Shown here: in pieces, positions 20,820 to 58,946 of the stretch | Layout: every line of letters starts with the position of its first letter | Numbering within the stretch: the first letter of the stretch is position 1 | Source: a virus | Lineage: Duplodnaviria; Caudoviricetes | Reading direction: 5' to 3' (one strand) | Virus record (IMG/VR): IMGVR_UViG_3300024346_000003 | DNA: 64,000 nucleotides | The notes under the pieces: generated by a model | What the model was told of the DNA's origin: nothing | The model's database searches: none | Seen by the model: only the letters and a program-made list of their open reading frames with translations | Translations under genes and position numbers: made by a program

Positions 20820-20895
20820 TGGTGCGCCCGACAGGGTTTGAACCTGTGACTCGTAAATTAAAAGTTTACTACTCTACCAACTGAGTTACGAGCGC
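20820..20895 (-). tRNA. tRNA-Lys(TTT), CCA encoded
   Basis: GTAAA-CTTTTAA-TTTAC; canonical cloverleaf. Confidence 0.92.
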
Positions 20896-20994
20896 ATATT
20901 TCTTCTTATGACACTCGTAACTTTTACAGCCGAGTGCCCTAACGTTTCTTCTTCTTTTTTGAAATGATTGTTAAGTTTTTCATAATTTTTAATT

Positions 20995-22838: not shown

Positions 22839-22912
22839 TTCACCATAAGGGACTTCAACCCTCATCTCCACTCCCAAACGGAATAGTGCACTTACTTTGT
22901 GCTAATGGTAAA
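22839..22912 (-). pseudogene. Degenerate tRNA (Pro-like loop sequence, enlarged loop)
   Basis: Acceptor TTACCAT/ATGGTGA, D arm GCAC/GTGC; loop CCGTTTGGG; T loop TTGAAGT. Confidence 0.45.
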
Positions 22913-22923
22913 TAATGTTAGCC

Positions 22924-22975
22924 AGAATCATCTTTTTTTTCATAAACGAATTTTTGAATTTGCTGAACTGATTCT
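22924..22975 (-). ncRNA. Second CAGCAA-containing hairpin element
   Basis: AGAATCA-GTTCAGCAA...TGATTCT. Confidence 0.35.
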
Positions 22976-22989
22976 TATGCTAATTTTTT

Positions 22990-23229
22990 GAGACTGTCCA
23001 GATTTAATAATTACCTTATTCACCTTAAATATGCGGCGATTAAATAGTTTATTCACCGCAAGGTTGTTATGGCAGTGTAACCCTGTCTCGTAATATCTTT
23101 ATCCCAAAATGATTTTTTGTGTTTTTCATCCCAGCGGATTAACCCATTTTACGTCTTCGGCTTTGCTTTGGCGAGAGTCTACTGTTATTCGACTGCATCC
23201 TACTTGCACCTGTTGGGGTGGTCTGACGT
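22990..23229 (-). ncRNA. Candidate structured ncRNA(s)
   Basis: GC-richer non-coding stretch with nested stems (GAGAC/GTCTC, GCGGTGA/TCGCCGC, ACGTC/GACGT, CACC/GGTG, AGTC/GACT). Confidence 0.4.
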
Positions 23230-23467
23230 TTAACCTTTTTTTTATATGGAAGTCTTACCATCTTTATTAATTCCGTAGTTCCAATGATACAAGTACCATT
23301 TTTCCTTACCAATTAATATCTCATGTAGTTTGTCTGTTTGGTTGCAGAACTCATTTTTTTGGATAAATGTTTTATAATAAATTAAAGAACGTTTTCTTAT
23401 TTGTTTTACAAAGATAGTAACTATTTTTTGATTTGTCAACTACTTTATGAAAATATTTTAATATTTT

Positions 23468-30616: not shown

Positions 30617-30715
30617 TTTTTTTCTTTTTTTCGTTAATAATATTTTTAATTACCTGACAAAGATATGTATAATATTTCAATTAAACAAATATTTTTTAAT
30701 TTTTTTTGATTTTAG

Positions 30716-30788
30716 TTGAGATAAGGGGTTTCGAACCCCGTGTTTCCACCCGTCTAGGTGGCGTTCTAACCAATTAAACTATATCCCA
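30716..30788 (-). pseudogene. tRNA-like gene with 6-nt anticodon loop (TAGACG) and G3:U70
   Basis: TGGGATA/TATCTCA acceptor; CCACC-TAGACG-GGTGG. Confidence 0.5.
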
Positions 30789-31305: not shown

Positions 31306-31371
31306 AAAGTTACTTTTTCTTTCTCAGCTATTCAGCGTCTAGGAAATATAAAAGTATAAAACCCTACATCG

Positions 31372-31440
31372 TTGTGAGTATGGGACTCGAACCCATATCA
31401 ACCGCTCACTGCGGCCATCCTGACCATTAGACGAACTCAC
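31372..31440 (-). pseudogene. Degenerate tRNA (GTG-like loop lacking U33)
   Basis: T arm ATGGG-TTCGAGT-CCCAT intact; loop CAGTGAG. Confidence 0.45.
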
Positions 31441-31512
31441 TAAACCAACTTTATCTGACTGCAATCATCAATCATTGGCTCTCTTGCAAGTATTGCAGTA
31501 CTTGCTTGATAG

Positions 31513-31799: not shown

Positions 31800-31889
31800 T
31801 TAACTTATGACAATAGTTGACCTTCCCAAGCTTTCATCCGCCTCGGCTGCAAAAAATGCAAAATCAAATATGTTAGTTAATGTTCTCAT
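31800..31889 (-). CDS. Attenuator leader peptide B (Phe/Asp/Ala/Glu sensor), 29 aa
   Basis: MRTLTNIFDFAFFAAEADESLGRSTIVIS; codons 8-19 all F/D/A/E. Confidence 0.85.
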   Translation of the reverse strand: MRTLTNIFDFAFFAAEADESLGRSTIVIS

Positions 31890-51904: not shown

Positions 51905-52549
51905 CTAATTATTAAATAAATTAGTTTTAACTTTAAAATTTTCAGCTAATTCCATTATCTTATTTTGAATATCTTCTGGTAACTCATCAAATATTGAATC
52001 AATATCAATACTTTGACCATCTAATGTTTCAAATTTGTTTAATTGTTCATAATATCTAATGATATCACCAGAGGTTAGTTTGATTTTTTTAAACCTATCT
52101 TTGTTTGGTTGTGCTTGTAGTGGTTGTTGTTCTTTACCAGTAACATAAAGGATTTGATTTGATGTTTCAAAATCCTTTTTTCTCATAATGGTTTTACTGA
52201 TTAAATCTAACTCACCATTTTCCTTATCCCAACTTATAGTAAACGGGATATTAATATTTGTTGGGTTGTTTTTAAATACAGCCTCAAAACCATCTTTATA
52301 TTTAATTAACTGCTCTTTGTATTGTGAATAAATCTTTTTAAAGATATCCCTAAGTTCTTCAATTGTAATTTCCTTACCATTTCTAACATCATTCACCCTA
52401 TCCAAAAAATGTTTTGTAAATTCAATATCAACACCAACACTTTTAAATAAATTATCTAATTCAATTTCTAATTTACCAAGCTGAGATGATGTGACGTAAT
52501 CTTCTCTTAAAAGACTTTCCCTTAATAATTTTTTAATTAATGATTTCAT
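51905..52549 (-). CDS. Hypothetical protein (possible virion-associated)
   Basis: MKSLIKKLLRESLLRE leader; FTKHFLDRVND. Confidence 0.55.
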   Translation of the reverse strand: MKSLIKKLLRESLLREDYVTSSQLGKLEIELDNLFKSVGVDIEFTKHFLDRVNDVRNGKEITIEELRDIFKKIYSQYKEQLIKYKDGFEAVFKNNPTNINIPFTISWDKENGELDLISKTIMRKKDFETSNQILYVTGKEQQPLQAQPNKDRFKKIKLTSGDIIRYYEQLNKFETLDGQSIDIDSIFDELPEDIQNKIMELAENFKVKTNLFNN

Positions 52550-52599
52550 ATATTATAAATATCATTAAAAAATTAAAAATTTGACATATTAGTAAATAG

Positions 52600-52688
52600 T
52601 AGAGAAGATGGGATTCGAACCCATGGGACCTTATTAAAGGTCCACCACATTAGCAGTGTGGCCACTTAAACCTCTCGTGCACCTCTCT
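52600..52688 (-). tRNA. tRNA-Ser(GCT)
   Basis: CCACA-CTGCTAA-TGTGG, long variable arm. Confidence 0.9.
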
Positions 52689-52694
52689 ATATTG

Positions 52695-52767
52695 TACCCC
52701 TAGAGGGATTCTAACCCCCATTCTAGCCTTAGAAGGGCCATGTCCTATACAGTTGAACGATAGGGGC
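52695..52767 (-). tRNA. tRNA-Arg(TCT)
   Basis: TGGCC-CTTCTAA-GGCTA. Confidence 0.85.
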
Positions 52768-52775
52768 GTGTATTG

Positions 52776-52848
52776 TACCCTCGACTGGATTCGAACCAGT
52801 ATTTTTGGTTTCGTAGACCAATGTTCTAATCCATTGAACTACAAGGGC
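52776..52848 (-). tRNA. tRNA-Arg(ACG)
   Basis: TTGGT-CTACGAA-ACCAA. Confidence 0.9.
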
Positions 52849-53030
52849 ATATTGTTATAATAAGAGTATAAACTGATATAAAACACACCAACCGTATCGT
52901 ATTTATATTCACCGTTTTTATTTGGTGGTTCAATCGCAACAATAGGATAATTCTCACCTAGTATTTTTTGATATTCCATAAATTGATTGTCCGTCTTTGG
53001 TATTGACATTTTTGTGTATAATAAATCCAT
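52839..53030 (-). CDS. Small hypothetical protein inside tRNA operon D
   Basis: MDLLYTKM... start avoids the upstream tRNA; stop overlaps the 5' end of tRNA-Arg(ACG). Confidence 0.35.
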   Translation of the reverse strand: MDLLYTKMSIPKTDNQFMEYQKILGENYPIVAIEPPNKNGEYKYDTVGVFYISLYSYYNNMPL

Positions 53031-53044
53031 AATATTTAAATTAG

Positions 53045-53115
53045 TACCGCCTGTGAGGTTCGAACTCACCTTTCCATCCATATGAGGGATAGTTGTACTC
53101 CACTGACTAGCGGCA
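53045..53115 (-). tRNA. tRNA-Met(CAT)-like (elongator Met or Ile2), irregular D arm and acceptor
   Basis: TATCC-CTCATAT-GGATG; T arm GTGAG-TTCGAAC-CTCAC. Confidence 0.6.
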
Positions 53116-53235
53116 TTTTGGTCGATGTCTAGAATCTTTAACCTCCTTTCTTGGCAAGGTCTCCATCATGGGTTCCGTTGATTGATTCATCTTTATAACC
53201 CCATACGGAACAAGCGGGGTAACCAAATTATTTTG

Positions 53236-53309
53236 CTCTTCAGGAGGGATTCGAACCCCCAACCCATCGGTTAACAACCGATTGCTCTGACCATTATAGC
53301 TACCGAAGA
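53236..53309 (-). tRNA. tRNA-Asn(GTT)
   Basis: ATCGG-TTGTTAA-CCGAT. Confidence 0.88.
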
Positions 53310-53385
53310 ATAAAAAAGTTTAGAGGCTTTGGGTTAGACACGCCTCAATATTACATGAGAGACCCCATAGATTGCATAAACTTTG

Positions 53386-53462
53386 TACAGAAGGTGAGAT
53401 TCGAACTCACATGTGACCAACTACCCTTTCTACAAGATATAAGCTTGAGGGGATACATCTGC
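53386..53462 (-). ncRNA. tRNA-like RNA with TAT anticodon-like loop and no canonical D arm
   Basis: Acceptor GCAGATG/CTTCTGT, CAAG-CTTATAT-CTTG, T arm GTGAG-TTCGAAT-CTCAC. Confidence 0.55.
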
Positions 53463-53519
53463 ATTTTTATAAGTGGCCAAAACTATGTTTTTTAGTGAGT
53501 TTTGGCCACTTATAAATTG

Positions 53520-53560
53520 TAGGAAACACGGGACTCGAACCCATAACCTTTCACGTATAA
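53520..53560 (-). pseudogene. 3' half of an interrupted tRNA-Ile(TAT)
   Basis: TTATAC-GTGAA-AGGTT-ATGGG-TTCGAGT-CCCGT-GTTTCCT-A. Confidence 0.7.
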
Positions 53561-53568
53561 ATATTTAG

Positions 53569-53640
53569 TAGGCATGTCGAGATTCGAACTCGAAATACAA
53601 CAGTATCAGTGTTGCGTGATAACCATTTCACTACACGCCT
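53569..53640 (-). tRNA. tRNA-Ile(GAT)
   Basis: CAACA-CTGATAC-TGTTG. Confidence 0.88.
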
Positions 53641-54208
53641 ATTTATTTAATTCTTCATGTATTTCTCTATGACAATTTGCGCAGACCATAATACATTTGT
53701 CTAATTCTAGTTTTATCTTTTCCCATGATAACACTGAGTAGGAACCAATTCCAAAATCTTTTTCGTTTGGGTCTAAATGATGAAATTCTAACGCTGAATT
53801 ACATCTATCATACCCACATTTTTGACAACAACCACCTTTATATTCAATAGCTTTTTCTTTTAACTTTTGACGAAAGTTTTTAACTTTTTGATAATTTCTA
53901 ATTTTTAACTCTTCATCGTTTAATTTAACATACTTATTTTCAGTATGTTTAATTATTGTTGATTTACCTAGATTAAATTTAACCATACATTCTTCAATGG
54001 TGTGGTCTTTATAGAAGCTATTTAATTCTTCTATTTCAATCTTTGTTAATTTAGCTCTTTGTTTACTAACAAAATTACCACCTAAATTATTATTGTTGCA
54101 ATGAAATGAAACGGTGCTTTTTGAACAATTCAATAGTTCACTTATTTCATTATAATTTTTACCAGAGTTTCTCAACTCTAGAATACTTTCTTTTAAACTT
54201 GTAGTCAT
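53639..54208 (-). CDS. HNH homing endonuclease with N-terminal HTH
   Basis: CQKCGY...LEFHHLDP...CIMVCANCHREIH. Confidence 0.85.
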   Translation of the reverse strand: MTTSLKESILELRNSGKNYNEISELLNCSKSTVSFHCNNNNLGGNFVSKQRAKLTKIEIEELNSFYKDHTIEECMVKFNLGKSTIIKHTENKYVKLNDEELKIRNYQKVKNFRQKLKEKAIEYKGGCCQKCGYDRCNSALEFHHLDPNEKDFGIGSYSVLSWEKIKLELDKCIMVCANCHREIHEELNK

Positions 54209-54280
54209 ATCAATATCTTTTATAGTTATAAATATACTACAAGTTCTAAAAAAGTCAATAGGTGCTAATTTTTATTTTTT

Positions 54281-54307
54281 TGCTCTAACCAGTTGAGCTA
54301 GCTTCCT
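54281..54307 (-). pseudogene. 5' half of the interrupted tRNA-Ile(TAT)
   Basis: AGGAAGC-TA-GCTC-AACTGGTTA-GAGC-A; AGGAAGC pairs with GTTTCCT at 53521-53527. Confidence 0.7.
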
Positions 54308-54326
54308 ATTGTGAGTGGAAGCCCCA

Positions 54327-54563
54327 TTACTTCCACTTTGTTTTTCTGTTGTGTTTCCACGTTTTGTATTCTCGCCATTTATGATTTGGTAGCTTACGGT
54401 GGCTCCAATTCCACCCATAATCCCATATGTTATAACCATAAATGTTCATCCATCGAATACAATTGTATTCTTTAGAAGTTTTTGCTTTGTTCAGTTTTGC
54501 TCTGTTAATTTTTTTACTCATAATGTTGTGAGTCTGTGAATAGCAGACCTTACAACATATCAA
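54327..54563 (-). CDS. Small basic hypothetical protein inside tRNA operon D
   Basis: Trp/Lys/Arg-rich; probable start at MSKKINR. Confidence 0.4.
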   Translation of the reverse strand: MICCKVCYSQTHNIMSKKINRAKLNKAKTSKEYNCIRWMNIYGYNIWDYGWNWSHRKLPNHKWREYKTWKHNRKTKWK

Positions 54564-54591
54564 ATTCCTTTTTCATAAATTTTAAATTTTG

Positions 54592-54678
54592 AGGAGGGGG
54601 TGGGACTCGAACCCACACACCACTAGGGCCTACGGTTTTCAAAACCGCCAAGCTTAGACCGACTGCTCTTACCCCTCC
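54592..54678 (-). tRNA. tRNA-Ser(TGA)
   Basis: GCGGT-TTTGAAA-ACCGT, long variable arm. Confidence 0.85.
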
Positions 54679-54689
54679 ATTTTTAAATA

Positions 54690-54782
54690 ATAAGGCTACA
54701 GCCTTATAATGTTATAATATAAGGCTACAGCCTTATAACCTTATAACGTTATAATATAAGGTTATAACCTTATAACGTTATA
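54690..54782. repeat. Tandem palindromic TTATAA / AAGGCTACAGCCTT repeats
   Basis: TAAGGCTACAGCCTTATAA twice and CCTTATAACGTTA twice. Confidence 0.7.
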
Positions 54783-54786
54783 TTAG

Positions 54787-54857
54787 CACGACTAGTAGGA
54801 TTCGAACCCACATCAAGGGATTTGGAATCCCGTATGCTACCATTGCACCATAGTCGT
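54787..54857 (-). tRNA. tRNA-Trp(CCA)
   Basis: CGGGA-TTCCAAA-TCCCT. Confidence 0.88.
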
Positions 54858-54874
54858 GTATTTTACTTACCAAT

Positions 54875-54886
54875 ATGTCAAAGAAC
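54875..54886 (-). promoter_or_regulatory. boxA-like antitermination signal
   Basis: GTTCTTTGACAT, identical to 22400-22411. Confidence 0.45.
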
Positions 54887-54893
54887 CTTTGTT

Positions 54894-54977
54894 GGTGTCT
54901 GACGGGAATTGAACCCGCATGTCGTAAGACCCCTGTTTCACAGACAGGTGTGGCAAACTAATATCCACCTCAGACAC
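54894..54977 (-). tRNA. tRNA-His(GTG) with enlarged (13-nt) variable region
   Basis: CCTGT-CTGTGAA-ACAGG. Confidence 0.75.
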
Positions 54978-54979
54978 AG

Positions 54980-55054
54980 CTCCCCAGACAGGATTCGAAC
55001 CTGTAACCCCTCGATTAACAGTCGAGTGCTCTAACCAGTTGTAGCTACTGGGGA
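54980..55054 (-). tRNA. tRNA-Asn(GTT)
   Basis: CTCGA-CTGTTAA-TCGAG. Confidence 0.92.
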
Positions 55055-55224
55055 ATGTTAATGGTGACAAATATTGTTACTTTGCCACCCTTCTTTTCAA
55101 ATTTAAGATTACCGTTGTAACCCATTTCTTTTGCTTTCGCATTGTATTCGTCATAAATCTTATCGAAGTCCTTTTGGAAGTCTGAGACTTTTACAGTTCC
55201 TAATGTTCTTACTAATTTTTCCAT
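55045..55224 (-). CDS. Small hypothetical protein, first gene after attenuator D
   Basis: MEKLVRTLGTVKV... starts just after the terminator. Confidence 0.5.
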   Translation of the reverse strand: MEKLVRTLGTVKVSDFQKDFDKIYDEYNAKAKEMGYNGNLKFEKKGGKVTIFVTINIPQ

Positions 55225-55238
55225 AATTTTTATGACAT

Positions 55239-55272
55239 AAAAAAACCCAACTCTATTTCTAGGTCGGGTTTC
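55239..55272 (-). terminator. Attenuator terminator, tRNA operon D
   Basis: AACCCGAC-CTAGAAATAGA-GTTGGGTT followed by a U tract. Confidence 0.88.
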
Positions 55273-55294
55273 TGATTTTATTAAATTCTTATTT

Positions 55295-55393
55295 TTAGAA
55301 CTCAATGATATCGCTGAACATACCAGACCTAGTTTGTAGACTATTACGTCTCCAATTACTAATCGACATTCTATGTATGTTATTTGTTATCAT
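55295..55393 (-). CDS. Attenuator leader peptide D (Asn/His/Trp/Ser/Ile/Met/Arg sensor), 32 aa
   Basis: MITNNIHRMSISNWRRNSLQTRSGMFSDIIEF; codons 4-18 all N/I/H/R/M/S/W. Confidence 0.85.
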   Translation of the reverse strand: MITNNIHRMSISNWRRNSLQTRSGMFSDIIEF

Positions 55394-55428
55394 TGTGTTT
55401 TTTTATTCGTGTATTAATTAAATATATG

Positions 55429-55459
55429 CAAATATACTAAAAGTTTTTTTATTTGTCAA
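55429..55459 (-). promoter_or_regulatory. Promoter of tRNA operon D
   Basis: TTGACA...TATATTTG shared block; 5' UTR nearly identical to operon B. Confidence 0.8.
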
Positions 55460-55490
55460 GTATTTTTAATTTTTATTTTAATTTTTTTTA

Positions 55491-56417
55491 TTAATCACCA
55501 TCTGGACCGTCATCTTTTAGTCTACCCCAAAGTTCGTTAGAAATATCATTTTCAAAATTTTCAACCGATTTAACGACATTCGGTATTGCTATTTTTTTCA
55601 TTTCATCAGTTAACTTATATTCTTGTCCACTAGTACAATCAATATATTTAATTTCTATGATTTTCTCTAGTGCAAACTCTGCTTCTGGATATTCTTCTGG
55701 ACTACCCCCATGATAACCCCACGATGCTGCCCTATATGAACCAGTAATTTTAAAATAAAAAGTAACAAGAGCTTTTAAATAGAAACAACTACTATCTGTT
55801 TCAGTATAGGTATATTCAATTTCTAATTCTGAATCGTCATAACCGTGGTTAAATTCTACAATATTATAACTATCCATTTCAAATTGTTCTAATTTAAAAA
55901 TTTCTTCTGGAATAAACATTTGTTCGTTTCCATCTTCACTTAATTCGTTATATTGTAAATCAGTTGGTTCGATTTCTGGGTTGATACCATATTGTTGTTT
56001 TCTATCTTCTAATTCCCAATCTTCATTATCATTTTCACTCAAACTTGAAGTCCCATTTATTATATTGACAACAATATTCGCTTTTTTAATCGCCCCTTCA
56101 ATATTACCCGCTTCTAAAAATTCACTAACTGAGTTAATACCACCATCAAATACACCACCATAACCATAAGCGAATTGGTTATCGAATTCCTCGAATCTTT
56201 TACCCATTTTTATTTCAAGCATTGTGTTAATTAACTCTTTAGCAACCCTTTCATAATCACCATTGTATTCAGTCATCCAAGATTGTATTTTAGATTCGTT
56301 ATCAGCGGCTAATCCACCACTAATATCTTCACTAATCAATCCCTTAGATTGTAGATATCTTTGTTCAGCTAATTTATTAGCTTTTCTAATATTATCTTTT
56401 TTATCAAATCTTCTCAT
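55491..56417 (-). CDS. Hypothetical acidic protein with shared MRRFDKK N-terminal module
   Basis: First about 31 aa shared with two neighbours. Confidence 0.7.
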   Translation of the reverse strand: MRRFDKKDNIRKANKLAEQRYLQSKGLISEDISGGLAADNESKIQSWMTEYNGDYERVAKELINTMLEIKMGKRFEEFDNQFAYGYGGVFDGGINSVSEFLEAGNIEGAIKKANIVVNIINGTSSLSENDNEDWELEDRKQQYGINPEIEPTDLQYNELSEDGNEQMFIPEEIFKLEQFEMDSYNIVEFNHGYDDSELEIEYTYTETDSSCFYLKALVTFYFKITGSYRAASWGYHGGSPEEYPEAEFALEKIIEIKYIDCTSGQEYKLTDEMKKIAIPNVVKSVENFENDISNELWGRLKDDGPDGD

Positions 56418-56427
56418 TTTTGTATTT

Positions 56428-57423
56428 TTAATTTGGATTTATAAATTCAGCAAATTCGCCAGGATTTAAACCAGCTGGTGCTACATTTTTATTTAAGTAA
56501 GAGAATTTTTTATTTTGACCATCAATTTGCATAGTACATCTAATATAAGAGATTTTACTTAAATCCAAAGATTTGAATTCATATGCATTTTCTAGTGCAA
56601 ATATTTCTTGAGCCGCTTCTTGGTTTTCAATATCCAATAATCTTTTAGGCATTTTAGCACTGTATGATTTAGGTGATAAACTAAAAACAAAATTAACTTC
56701 TTCTGGTGTTAGTTCAGCTATATCACCTTGGTAGTTTAAGAAATATTTAGTTTCACCTTTTTTAACCCCAACTTTTTTAGCATATATTGCCAATCTTTTT
56801 GTTTCAGTACCTTGGTGTTGTTGGAATGGTGTTCCCATAACTTCTTCCCATCCACTACCTCTTTTATCATTCGTATCGATTTCACCACCATCTGGCCATT
56901 GTAAACCATGTTTATCATAGGCACTTTTAACTTCAGCATCTTTATCAGCTTTATTTTTAATATTACCCCACTGTATAGTAAAACTTTTAGTTGTGTATAC
57001 TTTAGATGGTATTTTAACACCACCTTCTGTTTTAGCAGCAAATGGACTTTTAAAATTTTTACCAGCACCTTTATTTTTAGTCCAATCCTCTGAAGATATC
57101 ATATTTGTAAAAGCTGGGTTGTTTAATTTTCTAGCAATATCTTCCAAACCTTGCATATCTTCATTTTTAACTGTAACACTTAAGTCAGCATTATTCACAT
57201 ACCCAACAGTCATAAACCAACTATTATTTGGTTGGTATTTTGAAAACATTTTAAGTAATGTTTCAACATTATCAGTTACATCACCAAAAAACTCAGACAT
57301 TGAAGTTCTTTCAACTTCATTAAGTTCATCATTTTCATTAATTAAACCCTTAGATTGTAGATATCTTTGCTCAGCTAATAAATTAACTTTTCTAATGTTA
57401 TCGTTTTTATCAAATCTTCTCAT
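56428..57423 (-). CDS. Hypothetical protein with shared MRRFDKN N-terminal module
   Basis: As above. Confidence 0.7.
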   Translation of the reverse strand: MRRFDKNDNIRKVNLLAEQRYLQSKGLINENDELNEVERTSMSEFFGDVTDNVETLLKMFSKYQPNNSWFMTVGYVNNADLSVTVKNEDMQGLEDIARKLNNPAFTNMISSEDWTKNKGAGKNFKSPFAAKTEGGVKIPSKVYTTKSFTIQWGNIKNKADKDAEVKSAYDKHGLQWPDGGEIDTNDKRGSGWEEVMGTPFQQHQGTETKRLAIYAKKVGVKKGETKYFLNYQGDIAELTPEEVNFVFSLSPKSYSAKMPKRLLDIENQEAAQEIFALENAYEFKSLDLSKISYIRCTMQIDGQNKKFSYLNKNVAPAGLNPGEFAEFINPN

Positions 57424-57435
57424 TTTATTTTTTAT

Positions 57436-58308
57436 TTACCATGTTTTATACATTGTTAATTCGTACCTACCACTAGGCATTCTGTAAATTGATACACGTA
57501 TATATCTATTAGCTTCATTACCTCTTTTATCCAGGATTGGTTCTCCATTCTGTAATAATGGGATATTTGCTGACTTCTCAGTTTCATATGATATCCCACC
57601 AGTACCAAAATTAGTCCAAATTGTCTGCTCATCAACTTCAAACCCTAATTGCGCTGCTTTTTGTCTAACAGCATCCAATACTTCACTTAAAGTTTCAAAG
57701 TATGTATCATTACCATCTTCATGTAAACTACTCTGAGCACCCTTAACAATAGAATCAGCAAAACTTGGTTTACTAAATTGACTTTCTACATTATCTTCAC
57801 TTAATCCGTAATTATGTTTGTATGAATCATAATCTTCTTGATTATTCCACGAATCCCACATATCATTCATATTCTTATCTTCTTTATCGGTCCATTCTTG
57901 ATTTGGGTGATTCATGTTTGATTTAAGCATAACAACATTATTGTTATCCATTTTTGATTGTTCAGCGAATGTTGTTAATTTTTTCAATAATTCAATTTCT
58001 CTTTGGTAATCAAATGAGGTTAAATCACTGGCACCTTCAATAGCATCTTGAAGACCTATTTTAGCTGTTTGTATCCCATTAATTAATTCAGAAAGAGATA
58101 TTTCCTCATCTTCCCTAATGTCAAAACCAAATTTATAAAGAATACCATAATCATCATAACCTATTTCAATTATTGGACTATTTGCTGATGGTCTATCAGC
58201 ATATTGTAGCGTTAAATCTTCACTAATTAAACCTTTAGATTGTAGATATCTTTGTTCAGCTAATAAATTAGCTTTTCTAATGTTATCTTTTTTATCAAAT
58301 CTTCTCAT
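57436..58308 (-). CDS. Hypothetical protein with shared MRRFDKK N-terminal module
   Basis: As above. Confidence 0.7.
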   Translation of the reverse strand: MRRFDKKDNIRKANLLAEQRYLQSKGLISEDLTLQYADRPSANSPIIEIGYDDYGILYKFGFDIREDEEISLSELINGIQTAKIGLQDAIEGASDLTSFDYQREIELLKKLTTFAEQSKMDNNNVVMLKSNMNHPNQEWTDKEDKNMNDMWDSWNNQEDYDSYKHNYGLSEDNVESQFSKPSFADSIVKGAQSSLHEDGNDTYFETLSEVLDAVRQKAAQLGFEVDEQTIWTNFGTGGISYETEKSANIPLLQNGEPILDKRGNEANRYIRVSIYRMPSGRYELTMYKTW

Positions 58309-58946
58309 TACAATAAGTTTCTAAACATTTCGTCAATTTTCCATTTAGGCATATCTAAATCCATGCTGAATAGAATATTTCTTATTTTCTCTTCTTCTTC
58401 TCTTTGTTCGTTAACATAACCTAGAGCAAATGAATATGTATCATTGTCATCTTCACCTTTAGCTTTATTAGCAATATCGTTCCAATTCTTAGTAACTTTC
58501 ATTTCATGCTCTAACGCTTTTGCAACAACGTCTCTAACATTATTAAAGTTAACTGGAACATTTTTAACATTAGGTACAATTGCTTTAGCATTTTTTTCAT
58601 AAAGATATGTGTATATTTTTGACATATGACCTAATTCTTCATCTGCATATTTAAAGAAAAGTGCAGAACCACCAATCCAACCTTCGTCATCTAACCATGC
58701 ACTAAATGCACGATATACTTGAGATGAGTAAAGTTCATTCTCGATTTGCTTATTTAAAATAGCTGTAATACCATTACTCAATCTAGCTTTTTGTTCGATA
58801 GAGTTCTTTTTAACTGCTTCTACAATAATTTCAGCATCATCATTTCTTTTAATTTTATTAAAAGTGTTTACAAAACTTTCCAACATAGCATTTTTAACTT
58901 CGTTTGCTTGTTCTTGTCTTTTAGTTTCTGATATAATTTTTTTCAT
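58308..58946 (-). CDS. Non-heme ferritin with N-terminal extension
   Basis: LNKQIENELYSSQVY, ADEELGHM, ALEHEMKVT, YVNEQREEE. Confidence 0.85.
   Translation of the reverse strand: MKKIISETKRQEQANEVKNAMLESFVNTFNKIKRNDDAEIIVEAVKKNSIEQKARLSNGITAILNKQIENELYSSQVYRAFSAWLDDEGWIGGSALFFKYADEELGHMSKIYTYLYEKNAKAIVPNVKNVPVNFNNVRDVVAKALEHEMKVTKNWNDIANKAKGEDDNDTYSFALGYVNEQREEEEKIRNILFSMDLDMPKWKIDEMFRNLL

Follow-up and report, generated by a model that had tools for sequence, protein, structure and literature searches.

Does a phage tRNA array regulate its own transcription through the reading of a short leader peptide? The question is raised by a locus on the minus strand of the phage DNA analyzed here (64,000 nucleotides, hereafter the window), where a promoter is followed, in this order, by a short leader open reading frame (ORF), an intrinsic terminator (55270-55239), a 59-aa ORF and an array of ten tRNA genes. 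A first-pass annotation had read this arrangement as a leader-peptide attenuator. We found every sequence-level feature of such an attenuator at the locus, and we consider it quite probable that this locus, unit D, is a ribosome-mediated transcription attenuator through which decoding speed acts back on transcription of the tRNAs. The ten array tRNAs would then probably be made solely when ribosomes read a particular run of leader codons slowly. What we infer in this reading is that the leader is translated, that a kinetic race takes place, and which physiological signal is read.

Organization of the locus

The elements of unit D and the genes behind it are:

55415-55459, minus strand: shared promoter and 5'-UTR block of 45 nt, with TTGACA at 55459-55454 and, after 17 nt, TATATT (55436-55431)
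55295-55393, minus strand: 32-codon leader ORF (MITNNIHRMSISNWRRNSLQTRSGMFSDIIEF) that opens with the ATG at 55393 and is closed by a stop codon at 55297-55295
55045-55224, minus strand: 59-aa ORF, the first gene past the terminator; its last 10 nt overlap tRNA-Asn
52599-55054, minus strand: putatively gated tRNA array, i.e., ten tRNA genes, an inserted HNH cassette and a TAT-anticodon tRNA-like gene
53639-54208, minus strand: HNH homing-endonuclease gene with an N-terminal helix-turn-helix domain (PHROG HNH families, E 9e-30)

The window is AT-rich (~30% G+C) with negative GC skew throughout, and its minus strand carries the tRNA genes, 32 in four clusters, as well as all ORFs examined. The nearest complete relative that we reached, a viral contig of 287,855 bp, has direct terminal repeats and an estimated completeness of 100%; the window phage is therefore a jumbo phage. 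No close relative of the window was found in the GenBank phage collection.

The block at 55459-55415 was the top sigma-70-like match on the minus strand of the scanned stretch (11/12). It occurs again at 31955-31911 without a mismatch and at 34322-34278 with one mismatch, where 0 copies are expected by chance, and there is a fourth, weaker copy at ~22692-22664. Between the terminator and tRNA-Asn we found no further promoter-like block.

The leader ORF lies on the minus strand at 55393-55295 as first annotated, and all its coordinates check. Its ATG and reading frame are retained in 45 aligned relatives. It starts 37 nt past the -10 element behind an A-rich 5' UTR and has no Shine-Dalgarno sequence. 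Among the 57 long ORFs of the window none is preceded by a Shine-Dalgarno-like 4-mer, and the sequence before start codons is A-rich; a leader ORF lacking this signal is thus normal for the window phage. Moreover, the promoter sequence TATATTTG (55436-55429) matches TAnnTTTG, which we take to be the Bacteroidota -7 box. Because of this promoter fit, the absent Shine-Dalgarno sequences and the A-rich starts, a Bacteroidota host is likely.

Leader codons and the downstream tRNA array

One element of the leader ORF carries the link to the tRNA genes:

55340-55384, minus strand: regulatory run, leader codons 4-18, N N I H R M S I S N W R R N S

As had been claimed, these fifteen straight codons (55384-55340) all fall within the set of Asn, Ile, His, Arg, Met, Ser and Trp. 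This seven-amino-acid set has a background frequency of 0.338 in the window translation, and the run is the longest for the set in a six-frame translation of the whole 64-kb window, the runner-up being 10 codons long. Also correct were the single His codon (CAT, codon 7) and the single Trp codon (TGG, codon 14), one each in the leader, and the presence of both Ile codons, i.e., ATA (codons 2 and 6) and ATT (codons 11 and 30). The further claim that the single His and Trp codons match single tRNA genes held for tRNA-Trp (54786-54857) and failed for tRNA-His: the window has two genes with a GTG anticodon, one in cluster B (31371-31441) and one in the cluster behind leader D (54894-54977).

The array begins with Asn(GTT), the GTG-anticodon tRNA, Trp(CCA), Ser(TGA), the HNH cassette and Ile(GAT), and continues with the TAT-anticodon tRNA-like gene, Asn(GTT), a CAT-anticodon tRNA, Arg(ACG), Arg(TCT) and Ser(GCT). 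All of its anticodon species are sampled by at least one codon of the run. AAT and AAC are read by GTT, CAT by GTG, AGA by TCT, ATG by CAT and TCG by TGA; ATT is read by GAT, AGT by GCT, TGG by CCA, CGT by ACG, and ATA by the TAT-like gene or by CAT. This includes codons that the phage uses sparingly. TCG reaches tRNA-Ser(TGA) though it makes up just 3% of Ser codons in the window's long ORFs, and CGT, with 12% of Arg codons in the same ORFs, reaches tRNA-Arg(ACG).

Terminator and alternative helices

The RNA of unit D can be divided into four regions:

55358-55381, minus strand: region 1, predicted 5' strand of the anti-antiterminator in the minimum-free-energy fold; codons 5-12, inside the codon run
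55315-55333, minus strand: region 2, core CTAGGTCTGGT at 55332-55322, codons 21-24; its predicted partner is region 1 or the terminator 5' arm
55259-55270, minus strand: region 3, AACCCGACCTA as the 5' arm of the terminator, together with the first base of the loop; pairs with region 2 in the predicted antiterminator
55239-55255, minus strand: region 4, terminator 3' arm and T run, TAG-A-GTTGGGTT (55255-43), seven T at 55245-55239

The terminator is a 12-pair hairpin (55270-55243, ~-13.9 kcal/mol) with a GAAA loop at 55259-55256, followed by seven T. Pairing of 10 out of 11 positions between CTAGGTCTGGT (55332-55322) and ACCCGACCTAG (55269-55259) in the terminator arm, as annotated before, was reproduced. 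At -16.2 kcal/mol, this is the most stable duplex between any part of the leader ORF and the terminator 5' arm; shuffled ORFs reached -7.7 ± 2.3 kcal/mol, and none of 500 matched the native value. The antiterminator of unit D had also been called the clearest among the attenuators of this phage, a ranking that the energies do not bear out: unit C reached -19.2, D -16.2, A -14.1 and B -9.9 kcal/mol, and C is the sole unit that switches in equilibrium folding.

Leader-plus-terminator RNA folds at -40.8 kcal/mol (z = -4.6), a value equaled by none of 200 shuffles. In the minimum-free-energy fold, region 2 is wholly paired with codons 5-12 via the helices AACAUAC/GUAUGUU, UAGA/UCUG and UUAGU/ACUAG, and the start-codon region pairs with codons 28-31. 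With a 1:2 hairpin, an antiterminator and a terminator, the classical four-region attenuator layout is therefore present.

Conservation and covariation in related units

We collected relatives of unit D by several searches. The promoter block alone retrieved 19 viral-contig stretches and a 25-nt leader pattern retrieved 59 metagenome contigs. With the 59-aa ORF as sole query we obtained seven loci, all seven with a D-type leader ahead of the ORF. Pooled, the searches yielded 47 distinct D-type units that are complete; a unit was included if a T run followed its ORF. As these relatives form one phage lineage, the counts are not independent, and the figure to go by is how many distinct helix classes there are.

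The terminator hairpin was found in 47/47 units with energies from -10.6 to -17.3 kcal/mol. In 45 of the 47, when the leader tail is paired with the 5' terminator arm of its own unit, the most stable duplex begins at codons 20-22, and the paired sequences vary. Among the pairs were CTAGGTC/GACCTAG, GAGACG/CGTCTC, TGAGTC/GACTCA, GGTCAAGG/CCTTGACC, GTCGGGT/ACCCGAC, GTAGCAGG/CCTGACTAC, ATCGGGT/ACCCGAT and others. Column-wise covariation counts for the 2:3 helix were dropped because MAFFT had placed an artificial 3-nt gap in region 2 and the terminator classes were out of register; instead, the helix was tested by permutation of own versus other duplex energies. When each of the 21 terminator-arm classes was represented by one unit, own pairs had a mean of -12.84 kcal/mol compared with -9.28 kcal/mol for non-own pairs. 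None of 100,000 permutations reached the own-pair mean, and a control with reversed arms gave -9.13 kcal/mol.

The representatives of 20 classes fold into a long hairpin like that of regions 1 and 2. In the alignment, 76% of the cells of its core helix are paired versus 17-38% in slid registers, and both sides change in 8 pairs compared with 5.0 ± 1.2 in shuffles, which suggests modest covariation of the 1:2 helix. RNAalifold, applied to the ungapped leader block, found a small GAGAC/GUCUC hairpin alone.

We also analyzed how the codon run itself is kept. Codons 5, 6, 8, 9 and 12 were free in the search pattern, and all of them lie within the seven-amino-acid set in 45/45 sequences (100%), with the residues N/S, I/S/M, M/R/I, I/M and S/N/I, respectively. 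From codon 20 onward, membership in the set is 24-44%, near the background of 34%. Since residues in the run vary yet stay in the set, selection therefore acts on which tRNAs read the codon and not on the peptide. In the 27 units with at least 1.5 kb of downstream sequence, 210 of 215 tRNAs belong to the set; their order and copy number vary. A few arrays depart from the leader's set: one has no tRNA-Trp by ARAGORN though its leader keeps TGG, and one contains Thr and Pro tRNAs. Inspection of the relatives' leaders revealed no clear relation between their number of His codons and the number of downstream GTG-anticodon tRNAs.

Ribosome position and proposed mechanism

In equilibrium folding the terminator is favored in every ribosome state, with a probability of 0.84-0.97. 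When the full leader of unit D was folded with a masked ribosome, the terminator kept a probability of 0.59-0.96 and the structure did not flip. Any switch must therefore be kinetic. We modeled a co-transcriptional snapshot, in which the RNA was cut just after the terminator 5' arm, the point at which the decision falls, with a ribosome as mask. Over 20 classes, the arm was paired upstream with a probability of 0.77 when the A site was on codons 2-16, and of 0.25-0.33 when it was on codons 20-28. Upstream pairing was 0.6-0.7 with the ribosome at the stop codon and 0.61 without a ribosome. Unit D of the window behaved alike, i.e., upstream pairing of the arm was ~0.8 over codons 2-16, ~0.05 over codons 20-28 and ~0.7 at the stop codon.

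From the layout and these foldings we propose the following course of events. Transcription would start at the shared promoter, and a ribosome would translate the 32-codon leader, in which codons 4-18 are to be read by the tRNAs encoded downstream. If any of the ~10 anticodon species were scarce, the ribosome would linger on the run and cover region 1. Region 2 would then be free and pair with the emerging terminator 5' arm; no terminator would form, and RNA polymerase would enter the 59-aa ORF and the tRNA array. With fast decoding, the ribosome would be on or past region 2, or the 1:2 hairpin would have formed again, so that the terminator could form and transcription would end at 55245-55239. 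In this loop the tRNA product would feed back on its own synthesis via translation speed, and the four units of the window would sense four tRNA groups separately.

In the scheme described for attenuation, region I carries the regulatory codons, the polymerase pauses after the 1:2 hairpin and is released by the ribosome, and the outcome is set by the position of the ribosome as regions 3 and 4 emerge (PMC1183508). In unit D, the 1:2 hairpin ends at 55303, the termination point follows ~50 nt on, and the control run measures 45 nt. Assuming E. coli-like rates, a ribosome that meets no delay would stand on codons 17-25 when the decision falls, i.e., in the zone that blocks the antiterminator; a ribosome held up at any one of the 15 codons of the run would still cover region 1, and region 2 would be free. 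Unlike in trp, 8-10 codons separate region 2 from the stop, and a ribosome at the stop codon thus leaves it unmasked. Fast translation is hence predicted to terminate transcription just with the right timing or with a re-formed 1:2 hairpin, and basal read-through may be appreciable or high. A search of RNA runs with the 4-kb stretch listed none. Three metatranscriptome runs share 4-9% of words of 54580-55460; they gave contigs over tRNA-Asn and its neighbors, mostly from other organisms, and none over leader and terminator.

Sister units and alternative readings

The window contains four such units, which divide most of the phage tRNAs into four groups and serve as an internal control. In the three sister units, which have the promoter in common with unit D, a leader with T T G T T Y Q P K Q Y T Q G G K P precedes tRNAs for Pro, Gln, Tyr, Thr, Gly and Lys, a leader with F D F A F F A A E A D E precedes those for Phe, Glu, His, Asp and Ala, and a leader with L V L N L C L L L V V V precedes those for Cys, Val and Leu. 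The longest runs of own-set codons in the four leaders are 17, 12, 8 and 15, and foreign sets give runs of 1-4 codons. All four leaders start with M-(R/K/I)-T and look like diverged copies of one cassette. In unit B (31800-31889, minus strand), complementarity of leader and terminator is at chance level (-9.9 kcal/mol, equaled by 157 of 500 shuffles). The unit B leader has no His codon despite the tRNA-His in its array.

This partition bears on what the switch would sense. We consider it unlikely that the same RNA switch evolved to read amino-acid starvation or poor charging, or a general slowdown of host translation during takeover or defence, in which case the tRNA array would merely be switched on by stress. 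A stalled ribosome is indeed blind to whether a tRNA is missing or uncharged, as in trp- and his-type attenuators (scheme in PMC1183508), and monitoring of seven amino acids would make a broad OR gate. However, the run samples isoacceptors codon by codon, i.e., TCG and AGT for Ser, AGA and CGT/CGC for Arg, and ATA and ATT for Ile. Sensing of amino acids needs no such sampling, nor a Ser codon at 3% usage, and the leaders of the four units are partitioned exactly as the tRNA genes are.

Far less probable is a hairpin that acts as constitutive terminator or insulator of a short transcript, be it a small RNA or a micropeptide gene, with the tRNAs transcribed from elsewhere and the complementarity incidental. 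Such an arrangement would agree with equilibrium folding, where the terminator always wins, and with a second promoter-like site inside the array. This site (54258-54231, TTGACT-16-TATATT) belongs to the HNH cassette; it could express the distal tRNAs independently, and to that extent counts against the attenuator reading. Incidental pairing, however, would not follow the changes of the terminator through 21 classes (0/100,000 permutations), nor would it use the same codons in 45/47 units. Moreover, the codon runs match the downstream tRNAs four times over, and the stretch from the terminator to tRNA-Asn has no second promoter-like block. Direct sensing of tRNAs by the leader RNA, T-box-like through codon-anticodon pairing and without translation, would equally explain why the leader shows codons for the tRNAs behind it, but we dismiss it as extremely improbable, because no T-box or other riboswitch family was matched even at E up to 1, a specifier-loop architecture is absent, and the fifteen codons lie in frame in an open frame with conserved ATG and with set membership conserved in that frame.

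Genes and further features of the tRNA clusters

The 59-aa ORF is 88-100% identical across seven viral contigs. It is kept while leader tails and terminators diverge in these contigs, and it therefore probably encodes a real protein. It matched no Pfam family and had a marginal PHROG match (E 0.008). The HNH insertion is absent from some relatives.

Several genes of the array have unusual features. The GTG-anticodon tRNA at 54894-54977 (minus strand) is 84 nt long with a long variable arm, i.e., class II-like, and scores 41.9 bits with the Rfam tRNA model; its normal counterpart is the 71-nt tRNA-His(GTG) of cluster B (31371-31441). Most relatives' arrays have one to three genes with this anticodon. 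The TAT-anticodon tRNA-like gene (53386-53462, minus strand) scores 27.4 bits, the Rfam cut-off being 29, and ARAGORN did not call it. The leader's ATA codons would be its targets, and in three related arrays ARAGORN does call Ile(TAT). A fragment resembling a 5' tRNA half with acceptor and D arm lies directly upstream of the HNH cassette (54280-54306, minus strand), and one resembling a T arm with 3' acceptor lies just past tRNA-Ile(GAT) (53523-53560, minus strand). The acceptor strands of both are complementary over 6 pairs, and the fragments may be one tRNA gene split by the homing-endonuclease cassette. A split Ile(TAT) gene was found neither by BLAST with the relatives' Ile(TAT) genes nor by ARAGORN with introns allowed. 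Inside the array, a 64-aa ORF (54327-54521, minus strand; MSKKINRAK...) has 8 Trp residues and is rich in Asn, Lys, Arg, His and Tyr. At the end of cluster B, a tRNA gene at 30715-30788 (minus strand) was given a two-base anticodon (ga) by ARAGORN; it scores 43.1 bits with Rfam and is kept in relatives.

Outside the four units, a mini-ORF (MKNLTIISKKKKKR, 20939-20983, minus strand) with five consecutive Lys codons stands just before tRNA-Lys(TTT) (20820-20895). It is followed by a GC hairpin without a T run and may be a degenerate or different Lys sensor. In the stretch 22912-23235 (minus strand), ~200 nt upstream of tRNA-Lys and tRNA-Met are conserved in the 288-kb relative, where they stand before its first tRNA, and the variable parts are hairpin-like. 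This stretch had no Rfam match at E up to 1 and gave no folding signal (z = -0.7). Upstream of unit D, at 55491-58308 (minus strand), three tandem paralogues of 308, 331 and 290 aa have the N-terminus MRRFDK.DNIRK.N.LAEQRYLQSKGLI in common and are wholly diverged thereafter; none matched Pfam or PHROG. A ferritin-like gene (58308-58946) lies upstream of them.

Comparison with known regulatory systems

Unit D resembles the enterobacterial leader attenuators, both the multivalent ones (ilvGMEDA, ilvBN and thr) and those for a single amino acid (trpL, hisL, leuL and pheL), in its promoter-proximal short ORF with regulatory codons, in the mutually exclusive 1:2, 2:3 and 3:4 helices, and in an intrinsic terminator that precedes the structural genes. 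Its layout fits the race logic set out for these systems (PMC1183508). In contrast to them, unit D is phage-encoded, lacks a Shine-Dalgarno sequence and has region 2 inside the ORF. Enterobacterial attenuators monitor one to three amino acids, whereas unit D would monitor seven, or ~10 anticodon species, with one leader. They control biosynthetic enzymes; unit D would control tRNA genes and the 59-aa ORF. Amino-acid-biosynthesis or aminoacyl-tRNA synthetase genes downstream, the class criterion for such attenuators, are absent behind unit D. None of the Rfam leader families (Thr, Leu, Trp, His, Phe and others) matched, either when the window was scanned at the gathering threshold or when 52400-55500 was scanned at E up to 1.

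Control of a decoding component by the reading of its own codons is known from the pheM leader attenuator of E. coli pheST. Like unit D it acts on the decoding apparatus; unlike unit D it is bacterial, responds to one amino acid and controls a synthetase, not tRNAs. T-box riboswitches (RF00230) share with unit D a terminator/antiterminator switch that is tied to tRNA status. They differ in that they bind one uncharged tRNA directly, are independent of translation and control synthetase or amino-acid genes, and the RF00230 covariance model had no match in the window or in 52400-55500. The tRNA clusters of T4, T5 and jumbo phages resemble the unit D array in their close-packed tRNA genes and homing-endonuclease insertions; they are described as being under ordinary phage promoters.

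Significance for phage tRNA arrays

Leader-peptide attenuation is known for amino-acid and synthetase genes, and its mechanism is textbook. New here would be the application of amino-acid-operon attenuation to tRNA genes. A full-text literature search, largely outside subscription journals, found no description of leader-peptide control of tRNA genes, phage clusters included. As the sensed molecule and the regulated product would be the same tRNA set, the unit would be a direct homeostat for decoding capacity. It would be a compact natural sensor that reports on ~10 anticodon species at once, and the element is common in environmental DNA, with 59 metagenome contigs from one leader pattern.

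More speculatively, and with a rather small chance of being right, the unit could be a damage sensor of the host decoding apparatus, in which loss of an anticodon species causes a stall and thereby a burst of replacement phage tRNAs. Such losses could be caused by host anticodon nucleases or other tRNA-targeting defences, by tRNA decay in takeover, or by codon-usage mismatch. If this were true, the four units would form a code-wide surveillance and repair circuit, a counter-defence rather than a housekeeping feedback. If the attenuator reading of unit D is true, it would give a function to small ORFs before phage tRNA arrays, which are easily misread as hydrophobic or odd peptides, and would explain how large phages dose their tRNA genes.
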